Below, in pieces: positions 22,593 to 35,579 of a stretch of 64,000 nt of DNA. The notes beneath the pieces were generated by a model. It was not told where the DNA came from. It worked only from the letters and a program-made list of their open reading frames with translations, and did not search any database. Each line of letters starts with the position of its first letter. The first letter of the stretch is position 1. The DNA is from Escherichia coli. Lineage in GTDB: Bacteria > Pseudomonadota > Gammaproteobacteria > Enterobacterales > Enterobacteriaceae. Both the position numbers and the translations under genes were made by a program. The DNA lies in assembly GCF_022846255.1 (NCBI RefSeq), contig NZ_AP025682.1. One strand, written 5' to 3'.

Positions 22593-22625
22593 AGCTAACG
22601 TCAGATTGTTGACAAAGTGCGCGTA

Positions 22626-22720
22626 GTTCATGCCGGATGCGGCGTGAACGCCTTATCCGGCCTACAAAAAATCTTGCCAATTCAATATATTGCAGGACCA
22701 CGTAGGCCTGATAAGCGTAG
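22626..22720. repeat. BIME: two inverted REP units
   Basis: gccggatgcggcgtgaacgccttatccggcctaca ... gtaggcctgataagcgtagcgcatcaggca, classic REP palindromes in opposite orientation downstream of fepA. Confidence 0.7.
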
Positions 22721-22758
22721 CGCATCAGGCAGTTTTGCGTTTGTCATCATTCTCTAAT

Positions 22759-23427
22759 ATGGTTGACATGAAAACTACGCATACCTCCCTCCCCTTTGCA
22801 GGACATACGCTGCATTTTGTTGAGTTTGATCCGGCGAGTTTTCGCGAGCAGGATTTACTCTGGCTGCCGCACTACGCACAACTTCAACACGCTGGACGTA
22901 AACGTAAAACAGAGCATTTAGCCGGGCGGATCGCTGCAGTTTATGCGCTGCGGGAATATGGCTATAAATGTGTGCCCGCAATCGGCGAGCTACGCCAACC
23001 TGTGTGGCCTGCGGAGGTATACGGCAGCATTAGTCACTGTGGGACTACGGCATTAGCCGTGGTTTCCCGTCAACCGATTGGCATTGATATTGAAGAGATT
23101 TTCTCTGCACAAACCGCAAGAGAATTGACAGACAACATTATTACACCAGCAGAACACGAGCGACTCGCAGAATGCGGTTTAACCTTTTCTCTGGCGCTGA
23201 CACTGGCATTTTCCGCCAAAGAGAGCGCATTTAAGGCAAGTGAAATCCAAACTGATGCAGGTTTTCTGGACTATCAAATTGGAAATTGTCAGCATCAACA
23301 GATGAATATAAGCGGGCCGAATGGCGACCATATCGTGCAGTGGTTAGTAAGGGGTAATAATGTTATTACCTTGTGCCTGGTAGATAAACACCCGCACACT
23401 GCAGCATGCGGGTTATCTGGCGGGTAA
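22759..23427 (+). CDS. entD: 4'-phosphopantetheinyl transferase for EntB/EntF
   Basis: MKTTHTSLPFAGHTLHFVEFDPASFREQDLLWLPHYAQLQHAGRKRKTEHLAGRIAAVYALREYGYKC...; PPTase motifs; start taken at MVDMKTT; C-terminal ~45 aa differ from the K-12 allele as I recall it. Confidence 0.85.
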   Translation: MVDMKTTHTSLPFAGHTLHFVEFDPASFREQDLLWLPHYAQLQHAGRKRKTEHLAGRIAAVYALREYGYKCVPAIGELRQPVWPAEVYGSISHCGTTALAVVSRQPIGIDIEEIFSAQTARELTDNIITPAEHERLAECGLTFSLALTLAFSAKESAFKASEIQTDAGFLDYQIGNCQHQQMNISGPNGDHIVQWLVRGNNVITLCLVDKHPHTAACGLSGG

Positions 23428-23428
23428 T

Positions 23429-24364
23429 TCAAAGCATTTCCCGTGCCTGAGCTGCAATTCCGGCAGCATCAAATCCATGATGCTGACGCAACCACCCACG
23501 ATCCGCCGCTGCGGCATATTCTCCATCCATAATGCCTGCGCGTTTTAATTTGATCCCCGTTCCGGCCTCTGCCAACACTTCCGCGACCAGGCTACCAAGG
23601 CCGCCATTGACGTTATGCTCTTCAACCGTCATCACTGCTTTGCATCCTTTTAACGCTGCCAGCAATGCTTTGGTGTCGCATGGGCGAATCGACGGTACGC
23701 TGACAACTGTAGCCGCGATACCAGACTGCGCTAAAAGTTCTGCGGCATCGACCACTTCATGAACGGTAGAGCCTGTGGCTACCAGCGCCAGTTCGCTGCC
23801 CTCGCGCAAAGTCACCACGGCACCTGGTACAAATCGGTAGTCCTCATCGTGGATTTCCGGCAGGGCTTTACCGTCCATACGGATATAAACAGGCCCCTGA
23901 TAGCGAAGAGCATAATCAATCACCTGACGGCACTCCCGAGGTGAAGACGGGGCAAAGATTTGAATATTGCCGAAACCACGCATAACCGCAATGTCATCAA
24001 TCGCATGATGCGTGCTCGCCAGCGGTCCATAACTCGCCCCGGCATTCAGACCAAACAATTTTACGTTGGTAAAGTTGTAGCAGACATCAACCTTGATTTG
24101 CTCGTTAGCGCGAGCGATAAGAAATGGCGCGGCATTGCAGGTAACAGCCACCTTGCCGCCCAGCGCCAGCCCGGCAGCGGCACCAACCATGCTCTGTTCG
24201 GCAATACCCACATTCACCAGTCGGTCAGGAAATTGCTTAATAAAGGGAGCAATTTTTGCCGTAGACGTTGAATCAGCCACTACAGGCACCAAATCGATCC
24301 CCTCATTTACGGCATCGATAAATGCCTGAACCATCACATTTGCCAGATGTTCACTGTTACGCAT
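23429..24364 (-). CDS. Transketolase C-terminal (pyrimidine-binding) subunit of a split transketolase
   Basis: 311 aa, MRNSEHLANVMVQAFIDAVNEGIDLVPVVADSTSTAKIAPFIKQFPDRLVNVGIAEQSMVGAAAGLALGGK...; overlaps the N-subunit gene by 8 bp. Confidence 0.85.
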   Translation of the reverse strand: MRNSEHLANVMVQAFIDAVNEGIDLVPVVADSTSTAKIAPFIKQFPDRLVNVGIAEQSMVGAAAGLALGGKVAVTCNAAPFLIARANEQIKVDVCYNFTNVKLFGLNAGASYGPLASTHHAIDDIAVMRGFGNIQIFAPSSPRECRQVIDYALRYQGPVYIRMDGKALPEIHDEDYRFVPGAVVTLREGSELALVATGSTVHEVVDAAELLAQSGIAATVVSVPSIRPCDTKALLAALKGCKAVMTVEEHNVNGGLGSLVAEVLAEAGTGIKLKRAGIMDGEYAAAADRGWLRQHHGFDAAGIAAQAREML

Positions 24365-25187
24365 CTTTGAGTTCCTTCAGTGCCTGTTCAATTTCATCGC
24401 CTTTCGGCACCCGGTGATGCCATTCCGCACGCCCTTGTATAAAGGAAATGCCTGCCCCTTTAGTGGTGTGGGCAATCACCACATTCGGTTTGCCTTCCTG
24501 TTTAAGCCCTTCAAGCGTCGCGACAACCGAAGCCATATCATTGCCCTGACATTCGGTAACCTGCATACCGAATGCCAGCCATTTCTCTGCCAGAGGATCG
24601 GTGTTCATGATTTCGCGCGTTGGCCCGGCTAATTGCAGATTATTTTTGTCATTAATAATGACCAGGTTATCAAGCCCGTAATGCGCCGCCGCCAGTGCAG
24701 CTTCCCAGTTACTGCCCTCAGCCAGCTCACCATCGCCAGTAATTAAGAAGATACGACGACGGCTTTGACTTTTTTTCGCCGCCAGCGCAAGTCCTACAGC
24801 CACAGGGAAACCATGTCCCAGTGCTCCGGTATTCAGTTCAATACCTGGCGTTTTTTGCCGAACCGGATGGCCGGGTAAGTGTGAATTTGGCTGCTGATAA
24901 GTGGAAAGCCATTCCAGTGGGAAGAATCCTGCTTCCGCCAGCACGCAGTAGTAACATCCAACAGCATGGCCTTTTGACTGAATGTATATATCCCGGTCAT
25001 CGTCGTGAAGGCGATCCGGGGCGACATTGAGAATACGAAAATAGAGTGCGGTCAGTAATTCAACCTGAGAGAGATCGGCCCCAGTGTGTCCACCTGCCGG
25101 GCTATTGGCATTTAAGCGCACGATATGGCAGCGTACCGCCCGCGCTTTACGCTCAAGGGTCTGGATATCATAGCTATAGGGATTCAT
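24357..25187 (-). CDS. Transketolase N-terminal (thiamine-diphosphate binding) subunit
   Basis: 276 aa with TPP-binding GDGELAEGSNWEAALAAAHYGLDNLVIINDKN motif; first gene of a two-gene unit divergent from the regulator. Confidence 0.85.
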   Translation of the reverse strand: MNPYSYDIQTLERKARAVRCHIVRLNANSPAGGHTGADLSQVELLTALYFRILNVAPDRLHDDDRDIYIQSKGHAVGCYYCVLAEAGFFPLEWLSTYQQPNSHLPGHPVRQKTPGIELNTGALGHGFPVAVGLALAAKKSQSRRRIFLITGDGELAEGSNWEAALAAAHYGLDNLVIINDKNNLQLAGPTREIMNTDPLAEKWLAFGMQVTECQGNDMASVVATLEGLKQEGKPNVVIAHTTKGAGISFIQGRAEWHHRVPKGDEIEQALKELKDA

Positions 25188-25367
25188 TTAATACCTCTGA
25201 ATTTATTTTCAACATGGAATATTTATTCCACCGGGGACTAAAAAAACCAGAAATCCCAGGGCGTTGCGCGGCAAGACTTACGCTGCTGCATCATACTCAG
25301 GAACATTCTGCCTCCTTACACCGTCAGTTACGTGTCCGGGTAATCATCAGTTGACCTGATATCATCT

Positions 25368-25381
25368 TGAATATATATTCA
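25368..25381. promoter_or_regulatory. Palindrome TGAATATATATTCA in the transketolase / regulator divergent promoter region; candidate operator
   Basis: Direct reading; the same 12-bp core GAATATATATTC recurs at 26729..26740 upstream of the kinase-transporter operon. Confidence 0.45.
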
Positions 25382-25549
25382 ATAATGATTCTTTATTCAA
25401 TTATGCCGCCTGTTTTTTATTTTTGTCCATCGCTGATTTTAAGGATTGGTTAAAGTTAGAACTCCATCACACTTAACTGTCTTCTTTTTTCGCGTATGAT
25501 AAAAGCCTCTAAGATAAGGGCGGTACGTTAATGATTTACGGGGAAATAT

Positions 25550-26500
25550 ATGGCTAAGCAGGATGAACAGCGGCTACTGGTGAAGATCGCCACTCTTTAC
25601 TATCTTGAGGGGCGAAAACAGTCTGACATCGCCCAACTTCTCTCGCTTTCTCAGTCATTTATCTCCAGAGCGCTAACCCGTTGCCAGAAAGAAGGCGTGG
25701 TTAAAATCAGCGTTGTCCAGCCGTCAAATATCTTTCTCAATCTGGAAAAAGGCATTGAAGAGCGTTACGGCATTAAACAAGCGATTGTTGTCGATACCGA
25801 AGATGATGCCACTGACCATACCATTAAACGTGCTATCGGCTCTGCCGCCGCGCACTATCTGGAAACGCGTTTAAGACCAAAAGATTTCATTGGCGTCTCT
25901 TCCTGGAGTTCTACGATTCGCGCGATGGTCGATGAAGTTCACGCCCAAAACTTAAAAGCCAGCGGCGTTATTCAGCTGCTGGGCGGCGTGGGGCCAAACG
26001 GCAATGTGCAGGCAACTATTTTGACACAGACCCTGGCCCAGCATCTGAATTGCGAAGCCTGGTTGCTTCCTTCTCAAAGCATTGAAGGTTCGGTAGAAGA
26101 GAAAAAACGCCTGGTGGCAAGCCAGGATGTGGCTGACGTTATCGCCAGATTTGACGACGTCGATATCGCCATTGTCGGCATCGGTATCCTTGAACCCTCG
26201 CAGTTGCTAAAAACCTCGGGCAACTATTATCACGAGGATATGTTACAGGTACTGGCGGATCGCGGTGCTGTGGGCGATATCTGCCTGCACTACTACGATA
26301 AACATGGTCAGCCCGTGTTGCAGGACGATGAAGATCCAGTGATTGGTATGGCACTGGATAAAATCAAAAAATGCCCGAATGTGGTGGCACTGGCGGGCGG
26401 CAAAGACAAAGTTGCCGCCATCAAAGGCGCCATGCAGGGTGGTTATATTGATGTTTTGATCACTGATTTCCCCACCGCCAGAATGCTGATTGCGGATTAA
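25550..26500 (+). CDS. SorC/DeoR-family sugar-binding transcriptional regulator
   Basis: 316 aa; N-terminal HTH (QSDIAQLLSLSQSFISRALTRCQKEGVV) and C-terminal sugar-phosphate-binding domain typical of SorC/DeoR/EryD regulators. Confidence 0.85.
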   Translation: MAKQDEQRLLVKIATLYYLEGRKQSDIAQLLSLSQSFISRALTRCQKEGVVKISVVQPSNIFLNLEKGIEERYGIKQAIVVDTEDDATDHTIKRAIGSAAAHYLETRLRPKDFIGVSSWSSTIRAMVDEVHAQNLKASGVIQLLGGVGPNGNVQATILTQTLAQHLNCEAWLLPSQSIEGSVEEKKRLVASQDVADVIARFDDVDIAIVGIGILEPSQLLKTSGNYYHEDMLQVLADRGAVGDICLHYYDKHGQPVLQDDEDPVIGMALDKIKKCPNVVALAGGKDKVAAIKGAMQGGYIDVLITDFPTARMLIAD

Positions 26501-26523
26501 TCCTCTCCTCCCTTTCTTCTGCC

Positions 26524-26552
26524 CGCCTTTGCGAAAAAATCTTCTCGCAAAG
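26524..26552 (+). terminator. Hairpin downstream of the regulator gene; candidate intrinsic terminator
   Basis: cctttgcgaaaaaatcttctcgcaaagg forms a 9-bp stem; the 3' flank is not strongly T-rich, so strength is uncertain. Confidence 0.35.
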
Positions 26553-26646
26553 GCGCTTGCTTAAAAATCCTTTAATATCAATAAACTGAAATGATTCAAC
26601 AATCCTGTTTCTCGAGGCTTTCTCACCCTGTCACCACGCTTCTAAG

Positions 26647-26662
26647 TGTGATAGCCAGCACA
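26647..26662. promoter_or_regulatory. CRP-like site TGTGA-N6-GCACA upstream of the kinase-transporter operon
   Basis: tgtgatagccagcaca; 4/5 + 5/5 match to the CRP half-sites TGTGA/TCACA; about 190 bp upstream of the kinase start. Confidence 0.35.
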
Positions 26663-26728
26663 TTTGATGATTTTTTCTCTAGCTCAGGAAGAATAATCTG
26701 GCTAAGGTATAAATAAATAATCAGCATC

Positions 26729-26740
26729 GAATATATATTC
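26729..26740. promoter_or_regulatory. Second copy of the GAATATATATTC palindrome; candidate operator of the kinase-transporter-dehydrogenase operon
   Basis: Direct reading; identical 12-bp core to 25369..25380. Confidence 0.45.
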
Positions 26741-26850
26741 ACGCCTTAACACAAAATGTCACAGCAGGGCCTGATGAAGTAATAACGTGACCATGAGGAA
26801 CGCCTCATCTCCTTCCACGCCAGGATGCAATGTGACTCAGGAGACTACCT

Positions 26851-28371
26851 ATGTTTGCAGGAAATAAAGAGTTCGTTGTTGCGTTGGATGAGGGTACCAC
26901 CAATGTAAAAGCCATCGCACTTGATGGTTTCGGTAACGTGGTGGCGAAGTTTTCTCAACCACTGGCTATTCAGACGCCACGTGAAGGCTGGGTTGAGCAA
27001 TCCGGGGAAGCGTTAATCTCTGCCTCGCTTGATGTTATTGCCCAGGCCATCAACCACGTGGGGGCAGAAAATGTAGCGGCTCTGGCTATCAGTAATCAGC
27101 GTGAAACGGCTATCGGCTGGTATCGTCAGAGTGGAAAACCACTCAATGCGGCGATTACCTGGCAATGCACGCGCAGTGCAGAGTTTTGTGAAACACTTCG
27201 TCGCGAGGGCAAAGAGCAGCAAATTAAAACGACTACAGGCCTGCCTATCGCCCCGCTATTTTCCGCGTCCAAGATGCGTTGGCTACTGGAATCTACACCT
27301 GAGGGTGTGCAACTTGCCGACCAGGGTGAAATTTGTCTCGGCACCATTGATGCCTGGTTGCTATGGAACTTGACTGCTGGCGATTCATTTTGCTGCGACT
27401 ACTCTAACGCCGCGCGAACTCAATTACTTAACCTGAAAACAGGCGAGTGGGATGAGGAAATGCTGGCGTTGTTTCACATCCCACGCGCTGCATTGCCAGA
27501 AATTAAACCTTCCAGTGGCCTGTTCGGTTATACCCGAGGACTTAAAACAATTCCGGATGGTATTCCCGTCATGGCGATGGTGGGCGATTCTCACGCCGCT
27601 CTTTTTGGTCATGCGTTGGGAGAAGCGGGATGTGTGAAGGCGACCTATGGGACCGGTTCTTCCGTCATGGCCCCCGTCAACTCTGCTCAGTGTGATATCG
27701 CCACACTTGCCACAACCATTGCCTGGCATGATGGCGAAAATATTATTTACGGTCTGGAAGGAAATATCCCCCACACCGGCGATGCCGTGGCATGGATGGC
27801 TGACAGCACCGGTTTAAGTGAACTGACAGACGCGGAGCTGGCCCACGAACTGAATACCCTGCCAGCCTCAGTGGATTCGACTATGGGTGTTTATTTTGTT
27901 CCTGCTCTCACTGGCCTGGGCGCGCCATGGTGGGATGACAGCGCTCGCGGCGTGGTGTGTGGCTTAAGCCGTGGCGTAAAGCGCGCGCATTTGATTCGTG
28001 CCGCAATGGAATCAATCACTTATCAAATTGCAGATGTAGTGGAGGCAATGCAACAGCATGATGATTTTCACTTATCGGCGTTAATGGTGGATGGCGGCCC
28101 GACCAAAAATGACTGGTTGATGCAATATCAGGCGGATCTGCTGGGTTGCCCGGTGATGCGCAGTGATGTGCCAGAGCTTTCAGCCATTGGTGCGGGCCTG
28201 CTCGCCCGCAAAGCGCTTATCCCCGGTACCGTTGCAGATTTAAAAGCGTTATTAACTGAACACAGTGAATTTAAACCGGACATGGCGCGTCATCAGCGAC
28301 TGCAAAAGAGATGGCAGGAGTGGCGTCATGCGGTAAACAGAACATTATGGAAACCGGCATCGTCAATTTGA
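26851..28371 (+). CDS. FGGY-family carbohydrate kinase (xylulokinase / glycerol kinase-like)
   Basis: 506 aa, MFAGNKEFVVALDEGTTNVKAIALDGFGNVVAKF...; FGGY N- and C-terminal domain signatures. Confidence 0.85.
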   Translation: MFAGNKEFVVALDEGTTNVKAIALDGFGNVVAKFSQPLAIQTPREGWVEQSGEALISASLDVIAQAINHVGAENVAALAISNQRETAIGWYRQSGKPLNAAITWQCTRSAEFCETLRREGKEQQIKTTTGLPIAPLFSASKMRWLLESTPEGVQLADQGEICLGTIDAWLLWNLTAGDSFCCDYSNAARTQLLNLKTGEWDEEMLALFHIPRAALPEIKPSSGLFGYTRGLKTIPDGIPVMAMVGDSHAALFGHALGEAGCVKATYGTGSSVMAPVNSAQCDIATLATTIAWHDGENIIYGLEGNIPHTGDAVAWMADSTGLSELTDAELAHELNTLPASVDSTMGVYFVPALTGLGAPWWDDSARGVVCGLSRGVKRAHLIRAAMESITYQIADVVEAMQQHDDFHLSALMVDGGPTKNDWLMQYQADLLGCPVMRSDVPELSAIGAGLLARKALIPGTVADLKALLTEHSEFKPDMARHQRLQKRWQEWRHAVNRTLWKPASSI

Positions 28372-28474
28372 CGAACAAGACTAACCAACGGAAGGAGAAT
28401 ACCGGCCCATAAATAATTCAGGCTTTACGTTGTTTCACCGTACCCGACAATAACAACACAGAGAGAACATTGTC

Positions 28475-29410
28475 ATGAAATTACGTTTAACACTGTTAAC
28501 CGCTGCGACCCTGACTGCTCTTTCTTTTTCTGCTCATGCGGTAGAAAAAGGAACCATTATGATTATGGTCAATTCACTGGATAATCCTTATTACGCCTCG
28601 GAAGCGAAAGGTGCCAGTGAAAAAGCCCAGCAACTGGGATATAAAACGACCATTCTTTCTCATGGTGAAGATGTCAAAAAACAGAATGAACTGATCGATA
28701 CTGCAATTGGTAAAAAAGTTCAGGGCATTATTTTAGATAATGCCGACTCCACTGCCAGTGTTGCAGCCATTGAAAAAGCAAAAAAAGCAGGTATTCCCGT
28801 TATATTAATTAATCGCGAAATACCTGTGGATGATGTTGCACTGGTGCAAATTACCCATAATAACTTCCAGGCTGGCTCGGAAGTTGCCAACGTATTTGTC
28901 GAGAAAATGGGAGAGAAAGGAAAATATGCCGAACTCACCTGTAATCTTGCTGATAATAATTGCGTAACTCGCTCGAAATCTTTCCATCAGGTCATTGACC
29001 AGTTCCCTGAAATGGTCAGCGTGGCGAAGCAAGATGCCAAAGGCACGTTAATTGATGGCAAACGGATAATGGACAGTATTCTGCAAGCCCATCCCGATGT
29101 AAAAGGGGTGATTTGTGGTAATGGTCCGGTTGCACTGGGAGCTATCGCAGCACTGAAAGCAGCCAATCGCAATGACGTTATTGTTGTCGGCATTGATGGC
29201 AGTAACGATGAGCGCGATGCCGTGAAAGCCGAATCATTGCAGGCTACCGTGATGTTACAAGCGCAAGCCATTGCCGCGCAGGGGGTTACCGATTTGGATA
29301 ATTACCTGCAAAAAGGAGTTAAACCAGCCAAACAGCGGGTGATGTTCCGCGGCATTCTGATAACCAAAGATAACGCAGATAAAGTCCAGGATTTCAATAT
29401 CAAATCCTGA
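28475..29410 (+). CDS. Periplasmic sugar-binding protein of an ABC transporter (RbsB-like)
   Basis: 311 aa with signal peptide MKLRLTLLTAATLTALSFSAHA; periplasmic binding protein type I fold. Confidence 0.85.
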   Translation: MKLRLTLLTAATLTALSFSAHAVEKGTIMIMVNSLDNPYYASEAKGASEKAQQLGYKTTILSHGEDVKKQNELIDTAIGKKVQGIILDNADSTASVAAIEKAKKAGIPVILINREIPVDDVALVQITHNNFQAGSEVANVFVEKMGEKGKYAELTCNLADNNCVTRSKSFHQVIDQFPEMVSVAKQDAKGTLIDGKRIMDSILQAHPDVKGVICGNGPVALGAIAALKAANRNDVIVVGIDGSNDERDAVKAESLQATVMLQAQAIAAQGVTDLDNYLQKGVKPAKQRVMFRGILITKDNADKVQDFNIKS

Positions 29411-29456
29411 TCCCAGGTCGTTGCGCCCTCACAATGAGGGCGCAGAGGAGAATATT

Positions 29457-30077
29457 ATGGATAAAAAAGTCTGGCTGGCGCTGGCAATTCTGAGCCTGGG
29501 TGGATGTCGCATCGTCTCGCAGCAGGAACTTGCCGATCTCAAATCCCCGCCTAATCCTCATATGGCAAATATCGATCAGACCTGGCAGAAAAATATCGTG
29601 CCGCAGGTGGTAGAAAATGCACGTCCGGTTGCGGAGTTAATGGCGGCGCTACAGGCAGAAAAAGATGTCGATGCTGCCTGTAAAACGCTGGGCTATCGTT
29701 CTCAGGAAGAAAACCCGTGTATTTTCTACGTTAAGGTCGAAGGTGGCATCACCAATATTGATGCGAAATCCCGTAGCGGAAAAATGACCATCACAGATAT
29801 CAGCGGCACAAATATTGTCGTGCAGACGGGGCCAACTCTTCGCGGCACGCTTCTGCGAGATGCATATAAAGGTGCAAGCTATGAGCATTTTAACGATCAG
29901 GTTTTATTTGGTGAATATGGTCGTGCTATCAATGAGCAAGCCATCAATATGATTCAGTCGGCAAAGCTTAAAACCGGGGAAACGGTTCAGGTTTATGGCG
30001 TATTTTCTGCATGGGATATTCCGCAAACTATCCCGGATATAACGCCTGCGAAAATAGCCAGGGCGGGAGGCGAGTAA
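29457..30077 (+). CDS. DUF2291-like predicted lipoprotein embedded in the ABC transporter operon
   Basis: MDKKVWLALAILSLGGC... with a lipobox LSLGGC; start chosen at the internal Met with the signal peptide rather than the track start at 29421. Confidence 0.65.
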   Translation: MDKKVWLALAILSLGGCRIVSQQELADLKSPPNPHMANIDQTWQKNIVPQVVENARPVAELMAALQAEKDVDAACKTLGYRSQEENPCIFYVKVEGGITNIDAKSRSGKMTITDISGTNIVVQTGPTLRGTLLRDAYKGASYEHFNDQVLFGEYGRAINEQAINMIQSAKLKTGETVQVYGVFSAWDIPQTIPDITPAKIARAGGE

Positions 30078-30078
30078 T

Positions 30079-31623
30079 ATGTTGCCGCAAGAAATTGACA
30101 CCCCCCAGACTGATGAATCACCTGTAATCATAGAAACGCATGACTTATCGCGTATTTATCCGGGTGTGGTGGCGTTAGATAACGTGAATTACCGTGTCTA
30201 TCGCAATAGAGTGAATGTGCTTATTGGTGAAAACGGTGCGGGTAAATCCACAATGATGAAAATGCTGGCGGGGGTTGAAACACCTTCCTCAGGCAAGATC
30301 ATTCTTGATGGTAAAGAAGTTACCCTAAATTCTACCCATCAGGCCGAAAAACATGGAATTAGTATCATTTTTCAGGAACTGAATTTATTCCCGAATATGA
30401 ATGTCATAGATAACATTTTCATGGCGAATGAATTTTTTCAGAAAGGGAAGATTAACGAAAAATATCAGTATGAATTAGCCAAATCTTTATTAGAGAGACT
30501 GGAGTTGGACGTTGATCCCTATACCCAACTGGGAGAACTTGGTATTGGTCATCAGCAACTGGTGGAGATTGCCCGTGCCCTTTCTAAAGATACCCGGGTA
30601 CTGATTATGGATGAACCGACCTCGGCCCTCAGCCAGTCGGAAGTCAAAGTACTTTTCAATGTGATCGCACAACTGAAGCGCCGTGGTGTCACCATCATTT
30701 ATATCTCCCACCGTCTGGAAGAGTTGATGGAGATTGGCGATTTCATCACCATTTTCCGTGATGGTCGCTTTATTAGTGAACGCGCAGTGAGCGATGCCAG
30801 TATTCCGTGGATCATCGCACAAATGGTCGGTGATAAGAAAAAACATTTTGATTATCAACCAGCTACACAAGGTGACACTGTACTGGCGGTACTGGGGTTA
30901 ACGGCGCTGCATCCCAGCGGTGGTTACAAACTCAATGATGTGACATTCAACCTGCGTAAAGGCGAAGTTATCGGCATTTACGGCTTGCTGGGCGCAGGAC
31001 GTACTGAGCTATTTAAAGGACTGGTGGGCCTGATGCCCTGTCAGAGTGGGAAGATCCTGCTTAATGGTGAAACCATCGACAAATGCCATTTCCAGGCGCG
31101 GCTCAAAAAGGGGCTGGCGTTGGTGCCAGAAGATCGCCAGGGCGAAGGCGTCGTTCAGATGATGTCGATTCAGTCCAATATGACGCTATCCGATTTCAGC
31201 CTGCAAGGTTTTCGCCGTGCCTGGAAATGGCTGAATCCGCAAAAAGAGAGCGCCAGTGTGAAAGAGATGATCCAGCAACTGGCGATCAAAGTCAGTGATG
31301 CCGAACTCCCTATTACCTCACTCAGCGGCGGTAACCAGCAAAAAGTGGTACTTGGCAAAGCGTTGATGACCCAGCCACAGGTGGTGTTTCTTGATGAACC
31401 CACACGCGGCATTGATGTTGGCGCAAAAACCGACGTCTATCAGCTGGTGGGAAAAATGGCACAACAGGGGCTGGCAGTCATGTTCTCTTCTTCAGAACTC
31501 GATGAAGTCATGGCACTGGCAGATCGCATTCTGGTGATGGCTGATGGCCGTATTACCGCTGATCTACCCCGGGGCGAAGTCACCCGAGAGAAACTGATCG
31601 CGGCTTCAACACCTCAAGATTAA
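30079..31623 (+). CDS. Sugar ABC transporter ATPase with duplicated ATP-binding domains (RbsA-like)
   Basis: 514 aa; Walker A GENGAGKST in the first half, a second nucleotide-binding domain, signature LSGGNQQK. Confidence 0.9.
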   Translation: MLPQEIDTPQTDESPVIIETHDLSRIYPGVVALDNVNYRVYRNRVNVLIGENGAGKSTMMKMLAGVETPSSGKIILDGKEVTLNSTHQAEKHGISIIFQELNLFPNMNVIDNIFMANEFFQKGKINEKYQYELAKSLLERLELDVDPYTQLGELGIGHQQLVEIARALSKDTRVLIMDEPTSALSQSEVKVLFNVIAQLKRRGVTIIYISHRLEELMEIGDFITIFRDGRFISERAVSDASIPWIIAQMVGDKKKHFDYQPATQGDTVLAVLGLTALHPSGGYKLNDVTFNLRKGEVIGIYGLLGAGRTELFKGLVGLMPCQSGKILLNGETIDKCHFQARLKKGLALVPEDRQGEGVVQMMSIQSNMTLSDFSLQGFRRAWKWLNPQKESASVKEMIQQLAIKVSDAELPITSLSGGNQQKVVLGKALMTQPQVVFLDEPTRGIDVGAKTDVYQLVGKMAQQGLAVMFSSSELDEVMALADRILVMADGRITADLPRGEVTREKLIAASTPQD

Positions 31624-31640
31624 TCAGGCTGGAATTTCTT

Positions 31641-32708
31641 ATGAATCAGAAATATATGATCTATATGTACCTGTTGAAAGCCAGAACGTTTATCGCTCTG
31701 CTGTTAGTGATCGCCTTCTTTAGCGTGATGGTGCCTAACTTCCTGACGGCCTCTAACCTGCTGATTATGACTCAACACGTTGCGATTACCGGGCTGCTGG
31801 CAATCGGAATGACGCTGGTGATCCTGACAGGCGGCATCGATCTTTCCGTCGGCGCGGTAGCGGGGATCTGCGGAATGGTTGCCGGGGCTCTGCTAACAAA
31901 CGGCCTGCCATTGTGGAGCGGCGATATTATTTTCTTCAACGTACCGGAAGTGATCCTCTGCGTGGCGGTATTTGGCATTTTAGTGGGACTGGTGAATGGT
32001 GCGGTAATCACCCGCTTTGGTGTCGCGCCCTTTATCTGCACCCTCGGTATGATGTACGTCGCCCGTGGCTCTGCCCTGCTGTTTAATGATGGCAGCACTT
32101 ACCCCAATCTCAACGGCATGGAGGCACTGGGCAACACGGGTTTCGCCACCCTTGGTTCTGGCACGTTTTTAGGCGTTTATTTGCCAATCTGGCTGATGAT
32201 TGGCTTTTTGATTTTAGGCTACTGGATCACGACTAAAACGCCGCTCGGTCGTTATATCTATGCCATTGGTGGCAATGAATCTGCCGCGCGACTGGCAGGC
32301 GTACCCATCGTAAAAGTCAAAGTGTTCGTCTATGCGTTCTCCGGATTATGCGCCGCATTTGTCGGTTTGATTGTTGCCTCGCAGCTGCAAACCGCTCACC
32401 CAATGACCGGCAATATGTTCGAAATGGATGCTATCGGTGCCACGGTTCTTGGTGGAACTGCGCTGGCAGGTGGTCGGGGACGTGTCTCTGGCTCGATTAT
32501 CGGTGCCTTTGTCATTGTCTTCCTCGCCGATGGCATGGTGATGATGGGGGTCAGTGATTTCTGGCAAATGGTCATTAAAGGCCTCGTTATCGTCACCGCC
32601 GTGGTAGTCGATCAGTTCCAGCAAAAATTGCAAAACAAAGTCATTTTGATGCGTCGCCATGAAGAAAAGATGGCCGCCGCACCTGCCGTAAAACCGCTTT
32701 CCAGTTAA
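31641..32708 (+). CDS. Sugar ABC transporter permease (RbsC-like)
   Basis: 355 aa polytopic membrane protein of the monosaccharide ABC permease family. Confidence 0.85.
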   Translation: MNQKYMIYMYLLKARTFIALLLVIAFFSVMVPNFLTASNLLIMTQHVAITGLLAIGMTLVILTGGIDLSVGAVAGICGMVAGALLTNGLPLWSGDIIFFNVPEVILCVAVFGILVGLVNGAVITRFGVAPFICTLGMMYVARGSALLFNDGSTYPNLNGMEALGNTGFATLGSGTFLGVYLPIWLMIGFLILGYWITTKTPLGRYIYAIGGNESAARLAGVPIVKVKVFVYAFSGLCAAFVGLIVASQLQTAHPMTGNMFEMDAIGATVLGGTALAGGRGRVSGSIIGAFVIVFLADGMVMMGVSDFWQMVIKGLVIVTAVVVDQFQQKLQNKVILMRRHEEKMAAAPAVKPLSS

Positions 32709-32761
32709 TTAACATCATTCCGCCGGGCATTAAATTGCCCGGCTTATACAGGGGAAAAAAT

Positions 32762-33559
32762 ATGCAACGTAATTTTCAGGGTAAGACTGTAGTTATTACC
32801 GGGGCATGCCGGGGAATTGGGGCCGGGATCGCTGAACGCTTCGCCCGCGATGGCGCAAATCTGGTGATGGTTTCTAACGCTGCACGCGTGCATGAAACTG
32901 CTGAGCAACTGCGCCAATGTTATCAGGCTGACATTTTGTCATTAGAAGTCGATGTGACAGATGAAGCGCAAGTACAGGCACTCTATGAACAAGCGGCTGC
33001 ACGTTTTGGCAGCATCGATGTTTCCATTCAGAATGCAGGCATTATCACCATCGATTATTTTGATCGAATGCCGGCTGCTGATTTCGAAAAAGTGCTGGCG
33101 GTGAACACTACGGCAGTCTGGCTCTGCTGCCGGGAAGCAGCCAAATATATGGTGAAACAAAATCACGGCTGCCTGATCAACACCTCTTCTGGCCAGGGAC
33201 GTCAGGGGTTTATCTATACCCCACACTATGCAGCCAGCAAAATGGGTGTGATCGGCATTACGCAAAGCCTGGCGCACGAGTTAGCGCAGTGGAATATCAC
33301 TGTTAACGCCTTCTGCCCTGGTATTATCGAAAGCGAAATGTGGGACTACAACGACCGCGTATGGGGAGAAATTCTCAGTACCGATGACAAGCGTTATGGC
33401 AAAGGCGAGCTTATGGCGGAATGGGTGGAAGGTATTCCGATGAAGCGTGCCGGTAAACCTGAAGATGTTGCCGGACTGGTTGCCTTCCTCGCCTCTGACG
33501 ATGCGCGTTATCTCACCGGTCAAACCATCAACATCGACGGCGGCCTGATTATGTCGTAA
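32762..33559 (+). CDS. Short-chain dehydrogenase/reductase (polyol / sugar dehydrogenase-like)
   Basis: MQRNFQGKTVVITGACRGIGAGIAERFA...; TGxxxGIG Rossmann motif and catalytic YxxxK; ATG at 32762 preferred over the upstream TTG-initiated track start. Confidence 0.8.
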   Translation: MQRNFQGKTVVITGACRGIGAGIAERFARDGANLVMVSNAARVHETAEQLRQCYQADILSLEVDVTDEAQVQALYEQAAARFGSIDVSIQNAGIITIDYFDRMPAADFEKVLAVNTTAVWLCCREAAKYMVKQNHGCLINTSSGQGRQGFIYTPHYAASKMGVIGITQSLAHELAQWNITVNAFCPGIIESEMWDYNDRVWGEILSTDDKRYGKGELMAEWVEGIPMKRAGKPEDVAGLVAFLASDDARYLTGQTINIDGGLIMS

Positions 33560-33591
33560 TGCCCCTGCGGGCTACTAAGAGAGATATCAAA

Positions 33592-34377
33592 ATGATCGCA
33601 AAAGATTTTGCTCAACAATTGTTTGATCTCCACGATCGCGTCGCCTTTGTCACTGGCGCAGGTAGCGGTATCGGACAAATGATCGCTCTGGCTTTAGCCA
33701 GCGCAGGCGCACGAGTGGTGTGTTTTGATCTACGGGAAGATGGCGGACTCAAAGAGACGGTTAATCATATCGAAGCACTTGGCGGACAAGCCTTGTATTA
33801 CACGGGCGATGTTCGGGAATTGAGAGATCTTCGCGCAGCAGTCGCTCTGGCAAAAACACATTTTGGTCGTCTGGATATTGCCGTAAACGCCGCTGGAATC
33901 GCTAACGCAAACCCGGCGCTGGAGATGGAAAGCGAGCAATGGCAACGCGTTATCGATATCAACCTGACTGGTGTGTGGAATTCCTGTAAGGCGGAAGCCG
34001 AGTTAATGGTAGAGAACGGAGGCGGCTCGATTATAAATATTGCGTCAATGTCCGGGATTATCGTCAATCGCGGTCTGGAACAGGCTCACTACAACAGCTC
34101 CAAAGCAGGCGTGATTCATTTATCTAAAAGTCTTGCGATGGAATGGGTGAGTAAAGGGATCCGTGTGAACTCAATCAGTCCAGGATATACCGCAACACCA
34201 ATGAATACCCGACCTGAAATGGTGCATCAGACTCGGGAGTTTGAAATCCAGACGCCGATTCAGCGGATGGCGAAAGTGGAAGAGATGGCGGGTCCAGCGC
34301 TGTTCCTTGCCAGCGATGCGGCGTCGTTCTGCACTGGTGTTGATCTGGTGGTCGATGGTGGTTTTGTCTGCTGGTAA
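33592..34377 (+). CDS. Second short-chain dehydrogenase/reductase
   Basis: MIAKDFAQQLFDLHDRVAFVTGAGSGIGQMIALALA...; SDR motifs; start at 33592 preferred for its upstream gagag Shine-Dalgarno, with 33559 as alternative. Confidence 0.8.
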   Translation: MIAKDFAQQLFDLHDRVAFVTGAGSGIGQMIALALASAGARVVCFDLREDGGLKETVNHIEALGGQALYYTGDVRELRDLRAAVALAKTHFGRLDIAVNAAGIANANPALEMESEQWQRVIDINLTGVWNSCKAEAELMVENGGGSIINIASMSGIIVNRGLEQAHYNSSKAGVIHLSKSLAMEWVSKGIRVNSISPGYTATPMNTRPEMVHQTREFEIQTPIQRMAKVEEMAGPALFLASDAASFCTGVDLVVDGGFVCW

Positions 34378-34486
34378 AAATGGTTTCGCCCGCAGCCATC
34401 ACTGACCGCGGGCGAAAGTGTAAAGCAGGTGCCTTACCACCCTGACCTGACAACCGGATATGCGGGGATTGCTCCCCGCACAACGG

Positions 34487-34639
34487 CTACTTCTTCGGTT
34501 CGTAAGCGAGAACAACCTTAAACTCAATATTACGTTCCTTTACGGTAAACTCACACAGCGAGTCTCCGACCAGAAGCGTAAATCCCAGCACCGTTAAACA
34601 CAGCACTATGACTGCCACAAGGGCATATTTCGTCAGCAT
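34487..34639 (-). CDS. hokE: Hok-family small membrane toxin, copy 1 (variant with V at the position where copy 2 has A)
   Basis: [50 protein letters not shown], 50 aa; Hok family signature; overlapped by mok-like ORF 34551..34739. Confidence 0.8.
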
Positions 34640-34739
34640 GTTTATATTGCCTCCATGCGAAGAAGGGACTACCATCCAAATTGTTCAGGTTTGGGTAGGT
34701 AGCCCCAAGGTTGATAGAAATATCGTCCTGGGGCTTCAT
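34551..34739 (-). CDS. mokE: mok-like overlapping reading frame, copy 1
   Basis: 62-aa ORF overlapping the hok start in a different frame, as in hok/mok/sok loci. Confidence 0.5.
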
Positions 34740-34990
34740 CTTTCCAGACCTCAGAGTAAACCTGAAACCGGAAAGCTTCAGGCACCCGCAGTTATCTTAC
34801 CCTTCCTTAGCAAAATAGCTGTTTATTTATACAGTGAGTCCTGTTTAGGACTTTTCACCTGTATTATCGCCCATGCCAGTAAAACGAAATCGCCCGCAGC
34901 CATCTCTGACTGCGGGCGAAAGTGTAAAGCAGGTGCCTTACCATCCTGACCTGACAACCGGATATGCGGGGATTACTCCCCGCACAACGG

Positions 34991-35143
34991 CTACTTCTTC
35001 GGTTCGTAAGCGAGAACAGCCTTAAACTCAATATTACGTTCCTTTACGGTAAACTCACACAGCGAGTCTCCGACCAGAAGCGTAAATCCCAGCACCGTTA
35101 AACACAGCACTATGACTGCCACAAGGGCATATTTCGTCAGCAT
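34991..35143 (-). CDS. hokE: Hok-family small membrane toxin, copy 2
   Basis: [50 protein letters not shown], 50 aa; the copy adjacent to ybdK. Confidence 0.85.
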
Positions 35144-35243
35144 GTTTATATTGCCTCCATGCGAAGAAGGGACTACCATCCAAATTGTTCAGGTTTGGGT
35201 AGGTAGCCCCAGGGTTGATAGAAATATCGTCCTGGGGCTTCAT
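35055..35243 (-). CDS. mokE: mok-like overlapping reading frame, copy 2
   Basis: 62-aa ORF overlapping the hok start in a different frame. Confidence 0.5.
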
Positions 35244-35579
35244 CTTTCCAGACCTCAGAGTAAACCTGAAACCGGAAAGCTTCAGGCACCCGCAGTTATC
35301 TTACCCTTCCTTAGCAAAATAGCTGTTTATTTATACAGTGAGTCCTGTTTCGGACTTCTCATTTAATCAACTGAAGCTGAACCCGTTTTTTTCTGCATGC
35401 CTCAATCGTCAAAATTCTTCGCCGCCAGCCAGCTCTGCCATAACTTGTCACATTGCAAAAGTAGCCAAATTGCTTCAGTCACAATCAGTTCTCCATCACC
35501 AAAAAAAGAAACATTCCAGAACTTCCGCATCTCACCCAGCCGCTCCCACTTCTATACTGAATAGAAAACGCCAACATAA

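Follow-up and report, generated by a model that had tools for sequence, protein, structure and literature searches.

The entD gene in the stretch of Escherichia coli DNA analysed here (64,000 nucleotides of contig NZ_AP025682.1; hereafter, the window) is a chimera, joining 171 codons of ordinary Escherichia sequence to a diverged 3' end, designated tail A, that is always inherited together with the D-apiose cluster lying next to it. Tail A is a genuine entD 3' end, resembling those of Citrobacter. We consider it probable that two haplotypes of this region are swapped as blocks by homologous recombination, tail A being native to the haplotype with the apiose cluster.

RefSeq annotation of near-identical genomes places the entD start at ATG 22768, downstream of the TTG at 22690 chosen by the ORF finder, defining a gene of 219 codons plus stop (22768..23427, plus strand). 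Its product is an Sfp-type 4'-phosphopantetheinyl transferase of the enterobactin system, according to that annotation, the Pfam domains 4PPT_N and ACPS, and an AF2 model. As reference for the K-12-type tail (tail B) we used the island-free strain E. coli HS, whose EntD has 206 residues and ends in ...DYQIISWNKQQVIIHRENEMFAVHWQIKEKIVITLCQHD. Residues 1-171 of the window protein and of HS are around 95% identical, and the entD body (22768..23279, codons 1-171 except for the third base of codon 171) shows 93-98% nucleotide identity with island-free E. coli, up to positions 23276-23279. Tail A (23280..23385, codons 172-206; position 23280 is still the third base of codon 171) takes the place of tail B position by position: the two are co-linear, gap-free and in frame over residues 172-206, but share only 12/35 amino acids (34%) and 48.6% of their nucleotides. 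The window protein then continues for 13 residues, KHPHTAACGLSGG, encoded by 13 codons plus stop (23386..23427) that are missing from K-12-type EntD in the alignment. The original prediction, made from sequence inspection, that the EntD C-terminus was both unlike the K-12 type and longer was therefore correct, and the tail it quoted is the exact translation of the window sequence.

Megablast searches with positions 22760-23460 against 5,426 complete E. coli genomes gave matches ending at query positions 517-520 (window 23276-23279) in every island-less genome, and all five cluster-bearing entD alleles (window/AF16, ST131, MCJCHV-1 type, MOD1-EC7003) leave tail B at the same codon. The homology break, at 23279/23280, is 148 nt before the entD stop, confirming the suspicion that the island junction lies inside the 3' end of the gene. 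The stops of entD (23427) and of the convergent transketolase gene aptB (23429) are separated by 1 nt, also as first noted. Blastn comparisons with HS, E1V33, a divergent E. coli, E. whittamii and E. albertii located a second break at 34384/34385, with window positions 23280-34384 (11,105 bp) occupying the place of 128 bp in other Escherichia. The event is thus a block replacement, and not a simple insertion.

The replacing block starts with aptB (23429-24364) and aptA (24357-25187), on the minus strand (23429..25187) and convergent with entD, which encode the split transketolase of the D-apiose pathway, as recognized by Pfam (Transket_pyr/Transketolase_C and Transketolase_N, respectively) and by the NCBIfam transketolase halves. 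The rest of the cluster (25550..34377, plus strand) encodes a SorC-type regulator, an FGGY kinase (aplK), a sugar-binding protein, a DUF2291 protein, an ABC ATPase, a permease and two SDR oxidoreductases, identified from the ORFs, the AF16 RefSeq annotation, NCBIfam and PMC13001218. All 10 cluster ORFs are intact in the window, and their content, order and site downstream of entD fit the D-apiose degradation cluster. For the island genes, NCBIfam yielded no specific names, just sub-cutoff matches of a generic kind (transketolase, glycerol-kinase-like and SDR), and the assignment to apiose is therefore based on PMC13001218 (J Bacteriol 2026). That paper describes the cluster in E. coli STc131/STc14, E. 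fergusonii and E. sp002965065, with the same 10 genes and the same site, downstream of entD and upstream of hokE/ybdK, and names aptA and aptB. It also reports growth on D-apiose for ST131, ST1193 and E. fergusonii strains, citing Carter et al. 2018 for the pathway. The island thus corresponds to the cluster for D-apiose degradation carried by ST131 and ST1193, and ST131 genomes match the window aptAB at 99% nucleotide identity.

At the right boundary, homology with island-free genomes resumes, by blastn and by sequence, at a hairpin, TTCGCCCGC-N14-GCGGGCGAA (34385..34416, plus strand), which in island-free genomes occurs 19 nt past the entD stop. The conserved right flank consists of two tandem hokE/sokE modules (34385-34858 and 34890-35359, within 34385..35359, minus strand), matching two hokE genes annotated in AF16. 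No integrase or mobility gene is annotated among the 10 cluster genes, there is no tRNA within 18000-40000, and the two junctions have no common k-mer of at least 7 nt that could represent direct repeats; the cluster is not a classical integrative genomic island.

An entD match was found in 5,414 of the 5,426 genomes, and 5,408 of these contained either tail A (630 genomes) or tail B (4,778), with no intermediate tail among the 5,408. All 630 tail A genomes covered the entD/aptB junction, reaching into the transketolase gene, and 630 genomes carried aptAB. The original prediction had named normal entD diversity in island-free strains as the observation that would refute it; tail A was present in 0/4,778 tail B genomes. 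That tail A is just one allele of a variable gene, with the island being irrelevant, might be suggested by the unusual variability of entD in Escherichia, with a dS of 0.72 over codons 1-171 between HS and E. albertii and only 69% identity over codons 158-171. Ordinary drift is nevertheless hardly credible, since identity falls from around 93% to 48% at a single codon, the genomes show no intermediates and an invariable association with the cluster junction, and tail B is itself 89-93% conserved across the genus (89.5% nucleotide identity between HS and E. albertii, a divergence typical of the genus).

Alternatively, insertion of the island could have truncated entD, leaving an ORF that continues in unrelated island DNA up to a stop codon present there by chance. 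The break is indeed within the ORF, the new ORF ends 1 nt from the first island gene, and its last 13 codons overlap a terminator-like hairpin and are predicted to be disordered. Nevertheless, the stretch encoded by codons 172-206 can be aligned gap-free with both tail B and Citrobacter tails, at scores far above those of shuffled sequences. The similarity of tails A and B, in BLOSUM62 score, amino acid identity and nucleotide identity, was unmatched in 20,000 shuffles, and none of 20,000 shuffles was as good as the 12/34 identities between tail A and the tail of C. amalonaticus. A hand count gave 14/34 identities with a tail from the C. freundii complex, and tail A and Citrobacter EntD have in common the motif QHxQM...VQW...GN.VITL. 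Moreover, the 207-residue Citrobacter EntD adjoins aptB in like manner, and structure prediction gives tail A, with high model confidence, the four strands of the K-12-type protein. A newly created C-terminus is accordingly very improbable. The initial reading had weighed allelic variation against a consequence of the insertion; as a refinement, tail A is neither drift of the resident allele nor insertion-made junk. It is homologous to other entD 3' ends and belongs to the haplotype with the apiose cluster, and an appearance of read-through, into the terminator region of the convergent operon, is limited to the final 13 residues.

Window EntD matched PF17837 (4PPT_N; 2e-18, residues 37-100) and PF01648 (ACPS; 7e-12, residues 103-182), both above gathering scores. 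The ACPS alignment ended at profile position 87/111, as compared with 111/111 for HS; we rejected this as a defect, because other cluster-linked alleles reach 98-110, indicating end-point noise of local alignment. The catalytic motifs, whose integrity had been put forward as a check, are intact and all upstream of the break at residue 171: the G-x-D-x-E and F-S-x-K-E-S-x-x-K motifs correspond to G105-I-D107-I-E109 (23080-23094) and F148-SAKESAFK-A157 (23209-23238) in the entD body. The body also contains all the residues invariant among 104 family members (R46, R54, W80, H90, G105, D107, F148, S149, K151, E152 and K156), as well as E109, conserved in more than 90% of them. The AF2 model (pLDDT 93.9, pTM 0.88) predicts a two-lobed, pseudo-dimeric α/β fold with a C-terminal β-sheet, in which tail A would supply the last four β-strands of the ACPS half-domain (170-175, 178-183, 186-195 and 198-205; pLDDT 88-98), as in the HS model. 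Foldseek searches with this model retrieved PcpS (7bcz; E = 1.7e-16, TM 0.83), PptT and Sfp. K-12 EntD (206 aa), PcpS (7BCZ), PptT (4QJK) and Sfp (1QR0, 4MRT) share with window EntD the 4PPT_N + ACPS architecture, the invariant residues and the predicted fold, and K-12 entD has the same position after fepA; the K-12 protein differs in the 34%-identical residues 172-206 and in the 13 extra C-terminal residues. The tail is a variable region across the family, since the HMMER match stops around residues 157-160 in most of the 150 homologues listed, and column conservation is 0.26-0.33 in the tail versus 0.81 in the motif. The ORF is intact in the six cluster-linked entD alleles examined, and tail A is 96-100% conserved across the 630 genomes. 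Window EntD therefore looks intact and, judging from its sequence, has most likely kept phosphopantetheinyl transferase activity on apo-EntB and apo-EntF; a literature search for published evidence on the activity of the 219-residue, or ST131, EntD yielded nothing usable.

The 13 extra residues result from the tail A allele having no stop at the K-12 position, so that it reads through the hairpin of aptAB. A terminator scan detected this terminator-like hairpin, ACCCGCATGCTGCAGTGTGCGGGT then GTTTATCTAC, on the minus strand (23380..23413), 16 nt downstream of the aptB stop and within the entD extension, with a 10-bp stem containing six GC pairs and a loop of 4. Its minus-strand fold has -23.3 kcal/mol (z = -3.3), and the stem is conserved in Escherichia sp. 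MOD1-EC7003, so the hairpin may act as terminator of the convergent aptAB operon. K-12-type entD has its own hairpin downstream, whereas window entD adjoins the convergent gene. The extension is predicted to be disordered, as a region of low confidence in the AF2 model (pLDDT falling from 81 to 53), and, when 104 family members are aligned, its columns are occupied in no more than 12% of them.

The order fes-fepA-entD><aptB-aptA also occurs in C. farmeri, C. amalonaticus, a C. freundii-complex genome and Intestinirhabdus alba. In C. farmeri the gap between entD and aptB is 3 nt, and the cluster ends as ...SDR-hairpin-hok, with hok in the same position as in the window; the right-boundary hairpin also follows the last SDR gene in Citrobacter. 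Conversely, in 'Erwiniaceae bacterium CAU 1747' the cluster is present but does not adjoin entD, and the adjacency is therefore not universal. The C. freundii complex offers a similar, parallel case of entD 3' divergence linked to downstream content: between a cluster-bearing and a cluster-less genome, fepA is mostly 90-100% identical but entD only 45% after around nt 400, and the cluster-less genome has a different cassette downstream of entD.

Our preferred explanation, the exchange of haplotypes as blocks, would involve a haplotype A, formed by entD codons 172-219 and the 10-gene D-apiose catabolic cluster (11,105 bp, 23280-34384), and a haplotype B, formed by entD codons 172-206 plus 19 bp (128 bp). 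These would be exchanged by homologous recombination, without site-specific machinery, through a left crossover in the conserved entD body and a right crossover in the conserved hairpin/hokE region. With the crossover in the entD body, the odd EntD tail would be the native entD 3' end of the apiose haplotype, derived from a lineage in which entD and aptB had long been tail to tail, as they still are in Citrobacter and Intestinirhabdus. Tolerance of the swap would follow from the tail being the region under least constraint in Sfp-type phosphopantetheinyl transferases: it needs only four β-strands, and the catalytic and CoA/Mg-binding motifs are all upstream of the break. Between entD of Escherichia and of Citrobacter/Intestinirhabdus, the longest stretch of identity is 14-26 nt, in the FSAKES-coding stretch ending at codon 154, and the hairpin/hok flank shows identical runs of around 15-21 nt (by eye from the alignment); both are possible recombination anchors. 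However, this block of best identity ends 17 codons upstream of the break (codon 171) and does not precisely account for the point of crossover. The closest non-Escherichia AptB is only 89% identical in amino acids (around 77% in nucleotides), and for want of a donor we infer, rather than observe, the original recombination event. P0018, with an AptB of 95% amino acid identity, was discarded as a closer donor, since it is a 1.1-kb contig 98.8% identical in nucleotides to the window and, hence, just E. coli. A protein search with the tail alone returned 18 short partial candidates, with no donor of tail A and no non-Escherichia source of a B-like tail; 'Salmonella' and 'Proteus' matches were E. 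coli-like tail B fragments, probably mislabelled.

Secondary recombination is visible in two features: the three E. coli cluster-linked alleles differ in the extent of divergent sequence upstream, and E. coli and MOD1-EC7003 have 97-99.6% identity in the cluster, as compared with 93-94% in the flanks. Between the window and MOD1-EC7003, identity is 87% in the tail and 97% in the adjoining aptB, a difference that calls for either separate recombination tracts or a nearly neutral evolution of the tail (dN/dS 0.46, with nine substitutions only). As in integrase-free islands spreading via recombination of flanking core genes, the apiose island has no integrase, tRNA or repeats, shows variable recombination tracts in the flanking core gene and spreads across species. 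It differs in having one boundary inside an enzyme gene; therefore, each exchange swaps part of a protein, with both versions being in frame and foldable.

The direction of the exchange could be opposite to the 'ancient acquisition' in B2 put forward in PMC13001218. The arrangement entD(tail A)><apiose cluster-hairpin-hok would then be original in Escherichia/Citrobacter and would have been kept by basal B2 clones and the cryptic species of MOD1-EC7003, whereas tail B would be derived or foreign, arriving upon loss of the cluster by the same block exchange. Both junctions are co-linear with Citrobacter, and at least the left one with Intestinirhabdus. In comparison with C. farmeri, the cluster genes show 76-84% nucleotide identity and the flanking fes, fepA and entF 73-78%, and distances between C. 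farmeri and I. alba are alike for both gene sets; relative to Citrobacter, cluster and E. coli core genome are therefore of about equal age. The databases contain no closer donor, and PMC13001218 likewise reports nothing above 90% nucleotide identity. In addition, Citrobacter tails share 12-14/34 residues with tail A and 7-8/34 with tail B (hand count), and BLOSUM62 scores with the C. amalonaticus tail are 50 and 31, respectively. On the other hand, E. albertii, E. whittamii, E. sp. E1V33 and 88% of E. coli have tail B, and many lineages would have had to receive it. No B-like tail was seen outside Escherichia. According to PMC13001218, E. albertii, E. marmotae, E. ruysiae and E. whittamii lack the cluster; our own EntD scan of species representatives covered five Escherichia loci only, with E. 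fergusonii, E. marmotae and E. ruysiae not recovered. Furthermore, within Escherichia the cluster is 0.4-3% divergent and the flanks 6-7%, which suggests recent spread rather than long vertical residence, and the tail identities cover just 34 positions. Indeed, we rejected tail similarity as an indicator of polarity, because the tails are too short and variable; by hand count, A and B are equidistant from I. alba (5/35 each) and have 11 identities each with the long-loop C. portucalensis tail. Overall, we regard ancestral retention as possible but rather improbable. Similarly, it is an unlikely, tentative proposal that the entD 3' end is the left recombination handle of a cross-genus hotspot for cassette exchange, with an older, Citrobacter-like tail A and a K-12-type tail that came with the loss of the cluster.

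The island and its linkage to entD are already published (2026; PMC13001218), that paper describing an entD tree that groups cluster-positive genomes together, proposing spread by recombination including entD, and citing the high-pathogenicity island as an earlier case of an island propagating within E. fergusonii. Its main text does not use the words C-terminal, breakpoint, chimeric or mosaic, and makes no mention of an intragenic breakpoint, of a chimeric EntD with 219 residues, of the 128-bp counterpart, of an overlap with the terminator or of the entD><aptB...hok layout common to Citrobacter and Intestinirhabdus. What is added here are the exact breakpoints, the true EntD nature of the tail, the extension through the aptB hairpin, the layout in Citrobacter/Intestinirhabdus and the parallel in the C. 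freundii complex.

EntD activates the carrier proteins of enterobactin synthesis and, in strains without ClbA, also those of yersiniabactin. The chimeric EntD is carried by ST131 and ST1193, which among recent extraintestinal E. coli clones are the two most successful ones. In other respects the case is ordinary, with an enzyme that is most likely functional and an island whose link to entD was already known; it neatly illustrates how the edge of an island can fall within the gene of an enzyme and leave that gene unbroken. Knowledge of the exact chimera avoids mis-scoring entD as divergent or truncated in virulence-gene typing and explains the disagreement between the entD and species trees, and the 148-nt tail is a clean marker for the apiose haplotype. 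Should the entD 3' end be a cross-genus exchange hotspot, the published 'ancient acquisition in B2' would be reversed and the siderophore pathways of ST131/ST1193 would use an EntD with a different C-terminal sheet; the entD mRNA would also have to overlap the convergent aptAB transcript, which could couple the responses to apiose and iron.

In the window, the E. coli enterobactin region runs cstA, entA-entC, fepB, entS, fepDGC, fepE, entF, fes, fepA and entD, and is followed by a sugar-utilisation cluster and then by hokE, ybdK, nfsB, ybdG, pheP and cus. We compared the window with five island-free Escherichia genomes: E. coli HS, Escherichia sp. E1V33, a divergent E. coli, E. whittamii and E. 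albertii. In all five comparisons, homology stops at 23279, inside the 3' end of entD as originally predicted, and restarts at 34385, with 11,105 bp of the window occupying the place of 128 bp (the final 109 nt of entD, stop included, plus 19 nt). On the right, homology restarts at the hairpin TTCGCCCGC...GCGGGCGAA, upstream of hokE. The event is a block replacement; neither an annotated integrase nor a tRNA lies in the block, and its ends lack direct repeats. Its GC content (23280-34384) is 49.4%, that of the ent/fep genes on the left 54.7% and that of the right side 50.2%. Beyond the right edge lie two tandem copies of the hokE/sokE toxin-antitoxin module (34385-34858 and 34890-35359), each opening with the same hairpin TTCGCCCGCAGCC...GCGGGCGAA; two copies also occur in some other Escherichia.

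Megablast of positions 22760-23460 produced matches in 5,414 of 5,426 complete E. coli genomes, ending at window 23276-23279 in all except 630. Likewise, the tail alone (23281-23427, hereafter tail A) and the two transketolase genes, aptA and aptB, each matched 630 of the 5,426 genomes, and every tail-A genome (630/630) also covers the junction into the transketolase gene, indicating that tail A is tied to the island. The 128-bp counterpart, which includes the K-12-type end (tail B), matched 4,778. Of the 5,414 genomes in which entD gave a match at all, 5,408 carry either the haplotype with tail A plus cluster or that with tail B plus 19 bp, and no intermediates were found among the complete E. 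coli genomes matched. The possibility that tail A arose by ordinary drift of the resident entD allele is contradicted, being ruled out by this complete linkage and the lack of intermediates.

According to the RefSeq annotation of near-identical genomes, entD starts at ATG 22768, has its stop codon at 23425-23427 and encodes 219 aa; residues are numbered from this ATG, the mechanical ORF starting at TTG 22690 (245 aa). The spacer between fepA and entD contains a REP/BIME-like palindromic element (22601-22749), with cross-matches elsewhere in the E. whittamii and E. albertii loci. Window and HS EntD are ~95% identical up to residue 171, beyond which 12 of 35 residues are identical in a co-linear, ungapped alignment, and the window protein ends 13 residues later than that of HS (206 aa, with the K-12-type tail ...DYQIISWNKQQVIIHRENEMFAVHWQIKEKIVITLCQHD). 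The original prediction had described a tail unlike that of K-12, longer and abutting the island, with the entD and convergent transketolase stops 1 nt apart. The observation is real and was read correctly: the C-terminal residues quoted match the translated window protein, and 1 nt separates the entD stop from the end of the convergent ORF (23429). The PPTase catalytic motifs, whose integrity it proposed to check, are present (G105-x-D107-x-E109 and F148-SAKES-x-x-K156) and, like all the invariant family residues, lie upstream of residue 171.

Alignments and structural modelling show that tail A is a genuine EntD end. It scored 41 (BLOSUM62) against tail B and 50 against the C. amalonaticus tail (12/34 identical), values attained in 0 of 20,000 shuffles in either case, whereas tail B scored 31 against C. 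amalonaticus (7/34 identical). By hand count, tail A has 14 of 34 residues in common with a C. freundii-complex tail, in the pattern QHxQM...VQW...GN.VITL. The AlphaFold2 model of window EntD, built on a 104-sequence alignment (mean pLDDT 93.9), resembles the PPTases PcpS, PptT and Sfp in structure comparison and places four confident β-strands in residues 170-205, in agreement with those modelled for HS EntD (170-174, 178-183, 186-195 and 198-204); pLDDT drops to 81 and then 53 over residues 206-219. For residues 172-206, the idea of a junk neo-C-terminus is contradicted. Within the family, conservation is lowest in the tail, at 0.26-0.33 per column versus 0.81 at the motif, and the HMMER match stops near residue 158 in most of the 150 homologues listed. 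GC content is 47.6% in tail A and 39.4% in tail B of HS. Our literature search found no papers testing the activity of the 219-aa EntD.

At the K-12 stop position, the window allele reads GAT AAA and HS reads GAT TAA, and the extension codons run across ACCCGCA-N10-TGCGGGT. Read on the minus strand, these bases form a GC-rich hairpin with a 10-bp stem, which lies 16 nt past the aptB stop and precedes GTTTATCTAC. This hairpin was picked up by a terminator scan, folds better than 199 of 200 shuffles and retains its stem in the cluster-bearing Escherichia sp. MOD1-EC7003. The 13-residue extension is best explained by entD reading on into the putative terminator of the convergent operon. Since this terminator-like hairpin lies inside entD, the convergent entD and aptB transcripts probably overlap; additionally, no terminator-like site was found on the plus strand in 23427-24000 (570 nt past the entD stop), so fepA-entD transcripts may read antisense into aptB.

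The ten island genes encode a split transketolase, a SorC-type regulator, an FGGY kinase, a sugar ABC transporter with a DUF2291 protein and two SDR oxidoreductases, corresponding to the D-apiose degradation pathway (aptA, aptB, aplK and partners; PMC13001218, 2026). The cluster occurs in 100% of the complete genomes of STc131 and STc14/ST1193, in a few other B2 sequence types, in a quarter of E. fergusonii and in 6/7 E. sp002965065, with no non-Escherichia genome at 90% nt identity to the E. coli cluster genes, and cluster-bearing strains use D-apiose for growth (PMC13001218). The essence of the finding is thus already published, although the main text of that paper mentions neither the breakpoint, nor a chimeric C-terminus, nor the Citrobacter synteny; new here are the breakpoints, the 128-bp counterpart of the block, the overlap of entD with the putative terminator and the layout common across genera. 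The ABC ATPase gene is intact in the window (30079-31623) and annotated as frameshifted in AF16 (23320-24865), its closest complete genome.

Tail B without the cluster occurs in E. albertii, E. whittamii and E. sp. E1V33, and tail A with the cluster in MOD1-EC7003. The arrangement fes-fepA-entD><aptB-aptA... is found in C. farmeri, C. amalonaticus, a C. freundii-complex genome and Intestinirhabdus alba, with the entD and aptB stops 3 nt apart in the Citrobacter genomes, and in C. farmeri the last SDR gene precedes the hairpin found at the E. coli right edge and then a hok gene. Both E. coli junctions are therefore co-linear with other genera. This conserved layout, and Citrobacter tails nearer to tail A than to tail B, fit ancestral retention of cluster and tail A, as does the equal divergence of cluster and flanking genes: nucleotide identity to C. 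farmeri is 76-84% for the cluster and 73-78% for fes, fepA and entF, and the two sets differ to a similar extent between C. farmeri and I. alba. Nevertheless, we consider retention rather unlikely. Import of the cluster from an unsampled relative fits its distribution within Escherichia. A closely related cluster (AptB 87% identical) lies away from entD in Erwiniaceae bacterium CAU 1747, with an AsnC-type regulator and an aminotransferase after aptB.

Cluster identity between the window and MOD1-EC7003 is 97-99.6%, against 93-94% in the flanks, which indicates that the cluster spread recently between Escherichia species. Three cluster-linked E. coli entD alleles (window/AF16, ST131 and MCJCHV-1/EC444/MS8320, the last with a divergent patch in codons 59-145) differ upstream of the break, which points to secondary recombination. 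Divergence within Escherichia is unusually high in the entD body (HS-E. albertii dS 0.72 in codons 1-171, versus 0.18 in tail B), and identity falls to 69% in codons 158-171. The two haplotypes are probably exchanged as allelic blocks through homologous recombination, the left crossover falling inside entD and the tail swap being tolerated because the tail is weakly constrained. The longest identical runs between Escherichia entD and the Citrobacter/Intestinirhabdus genes (14-26 nt) fall in the FSAKES-coding stretch, and the hairpin/hok flank has identical runs of ~15-21 nt (alignment read by eye); both could possibly serve as crossover anchors. Tail A of the window and that of MOD1-EC7003 share 87% identity (adjacent aptB, 97%), and the tail's dN/dS of 0.46, from only nine substitutions, is compatible with near-neutral evolution, without proving it.

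Within the C. freundii complex, fepA is mostly 90-100% identical between the cluster-bearing genome and C. portucalensis, which lacks the cluster, whereas entD identity drops to 45% past ~nt 400. EntD has 207 aa and abuts aptB in the former; in the latter it has 220 aa, and a different transporter cassette, comprising a binding protein, a DUF2291 protein, an ABC ATPase and a permease, lies downstream in the same orientation. An entD 3' end travelling with its downstream DNA is hence not peculiar to E. coli, and Citrobacter is a second genus in which the sequence downstream of entD looks like a cassette hotspot.
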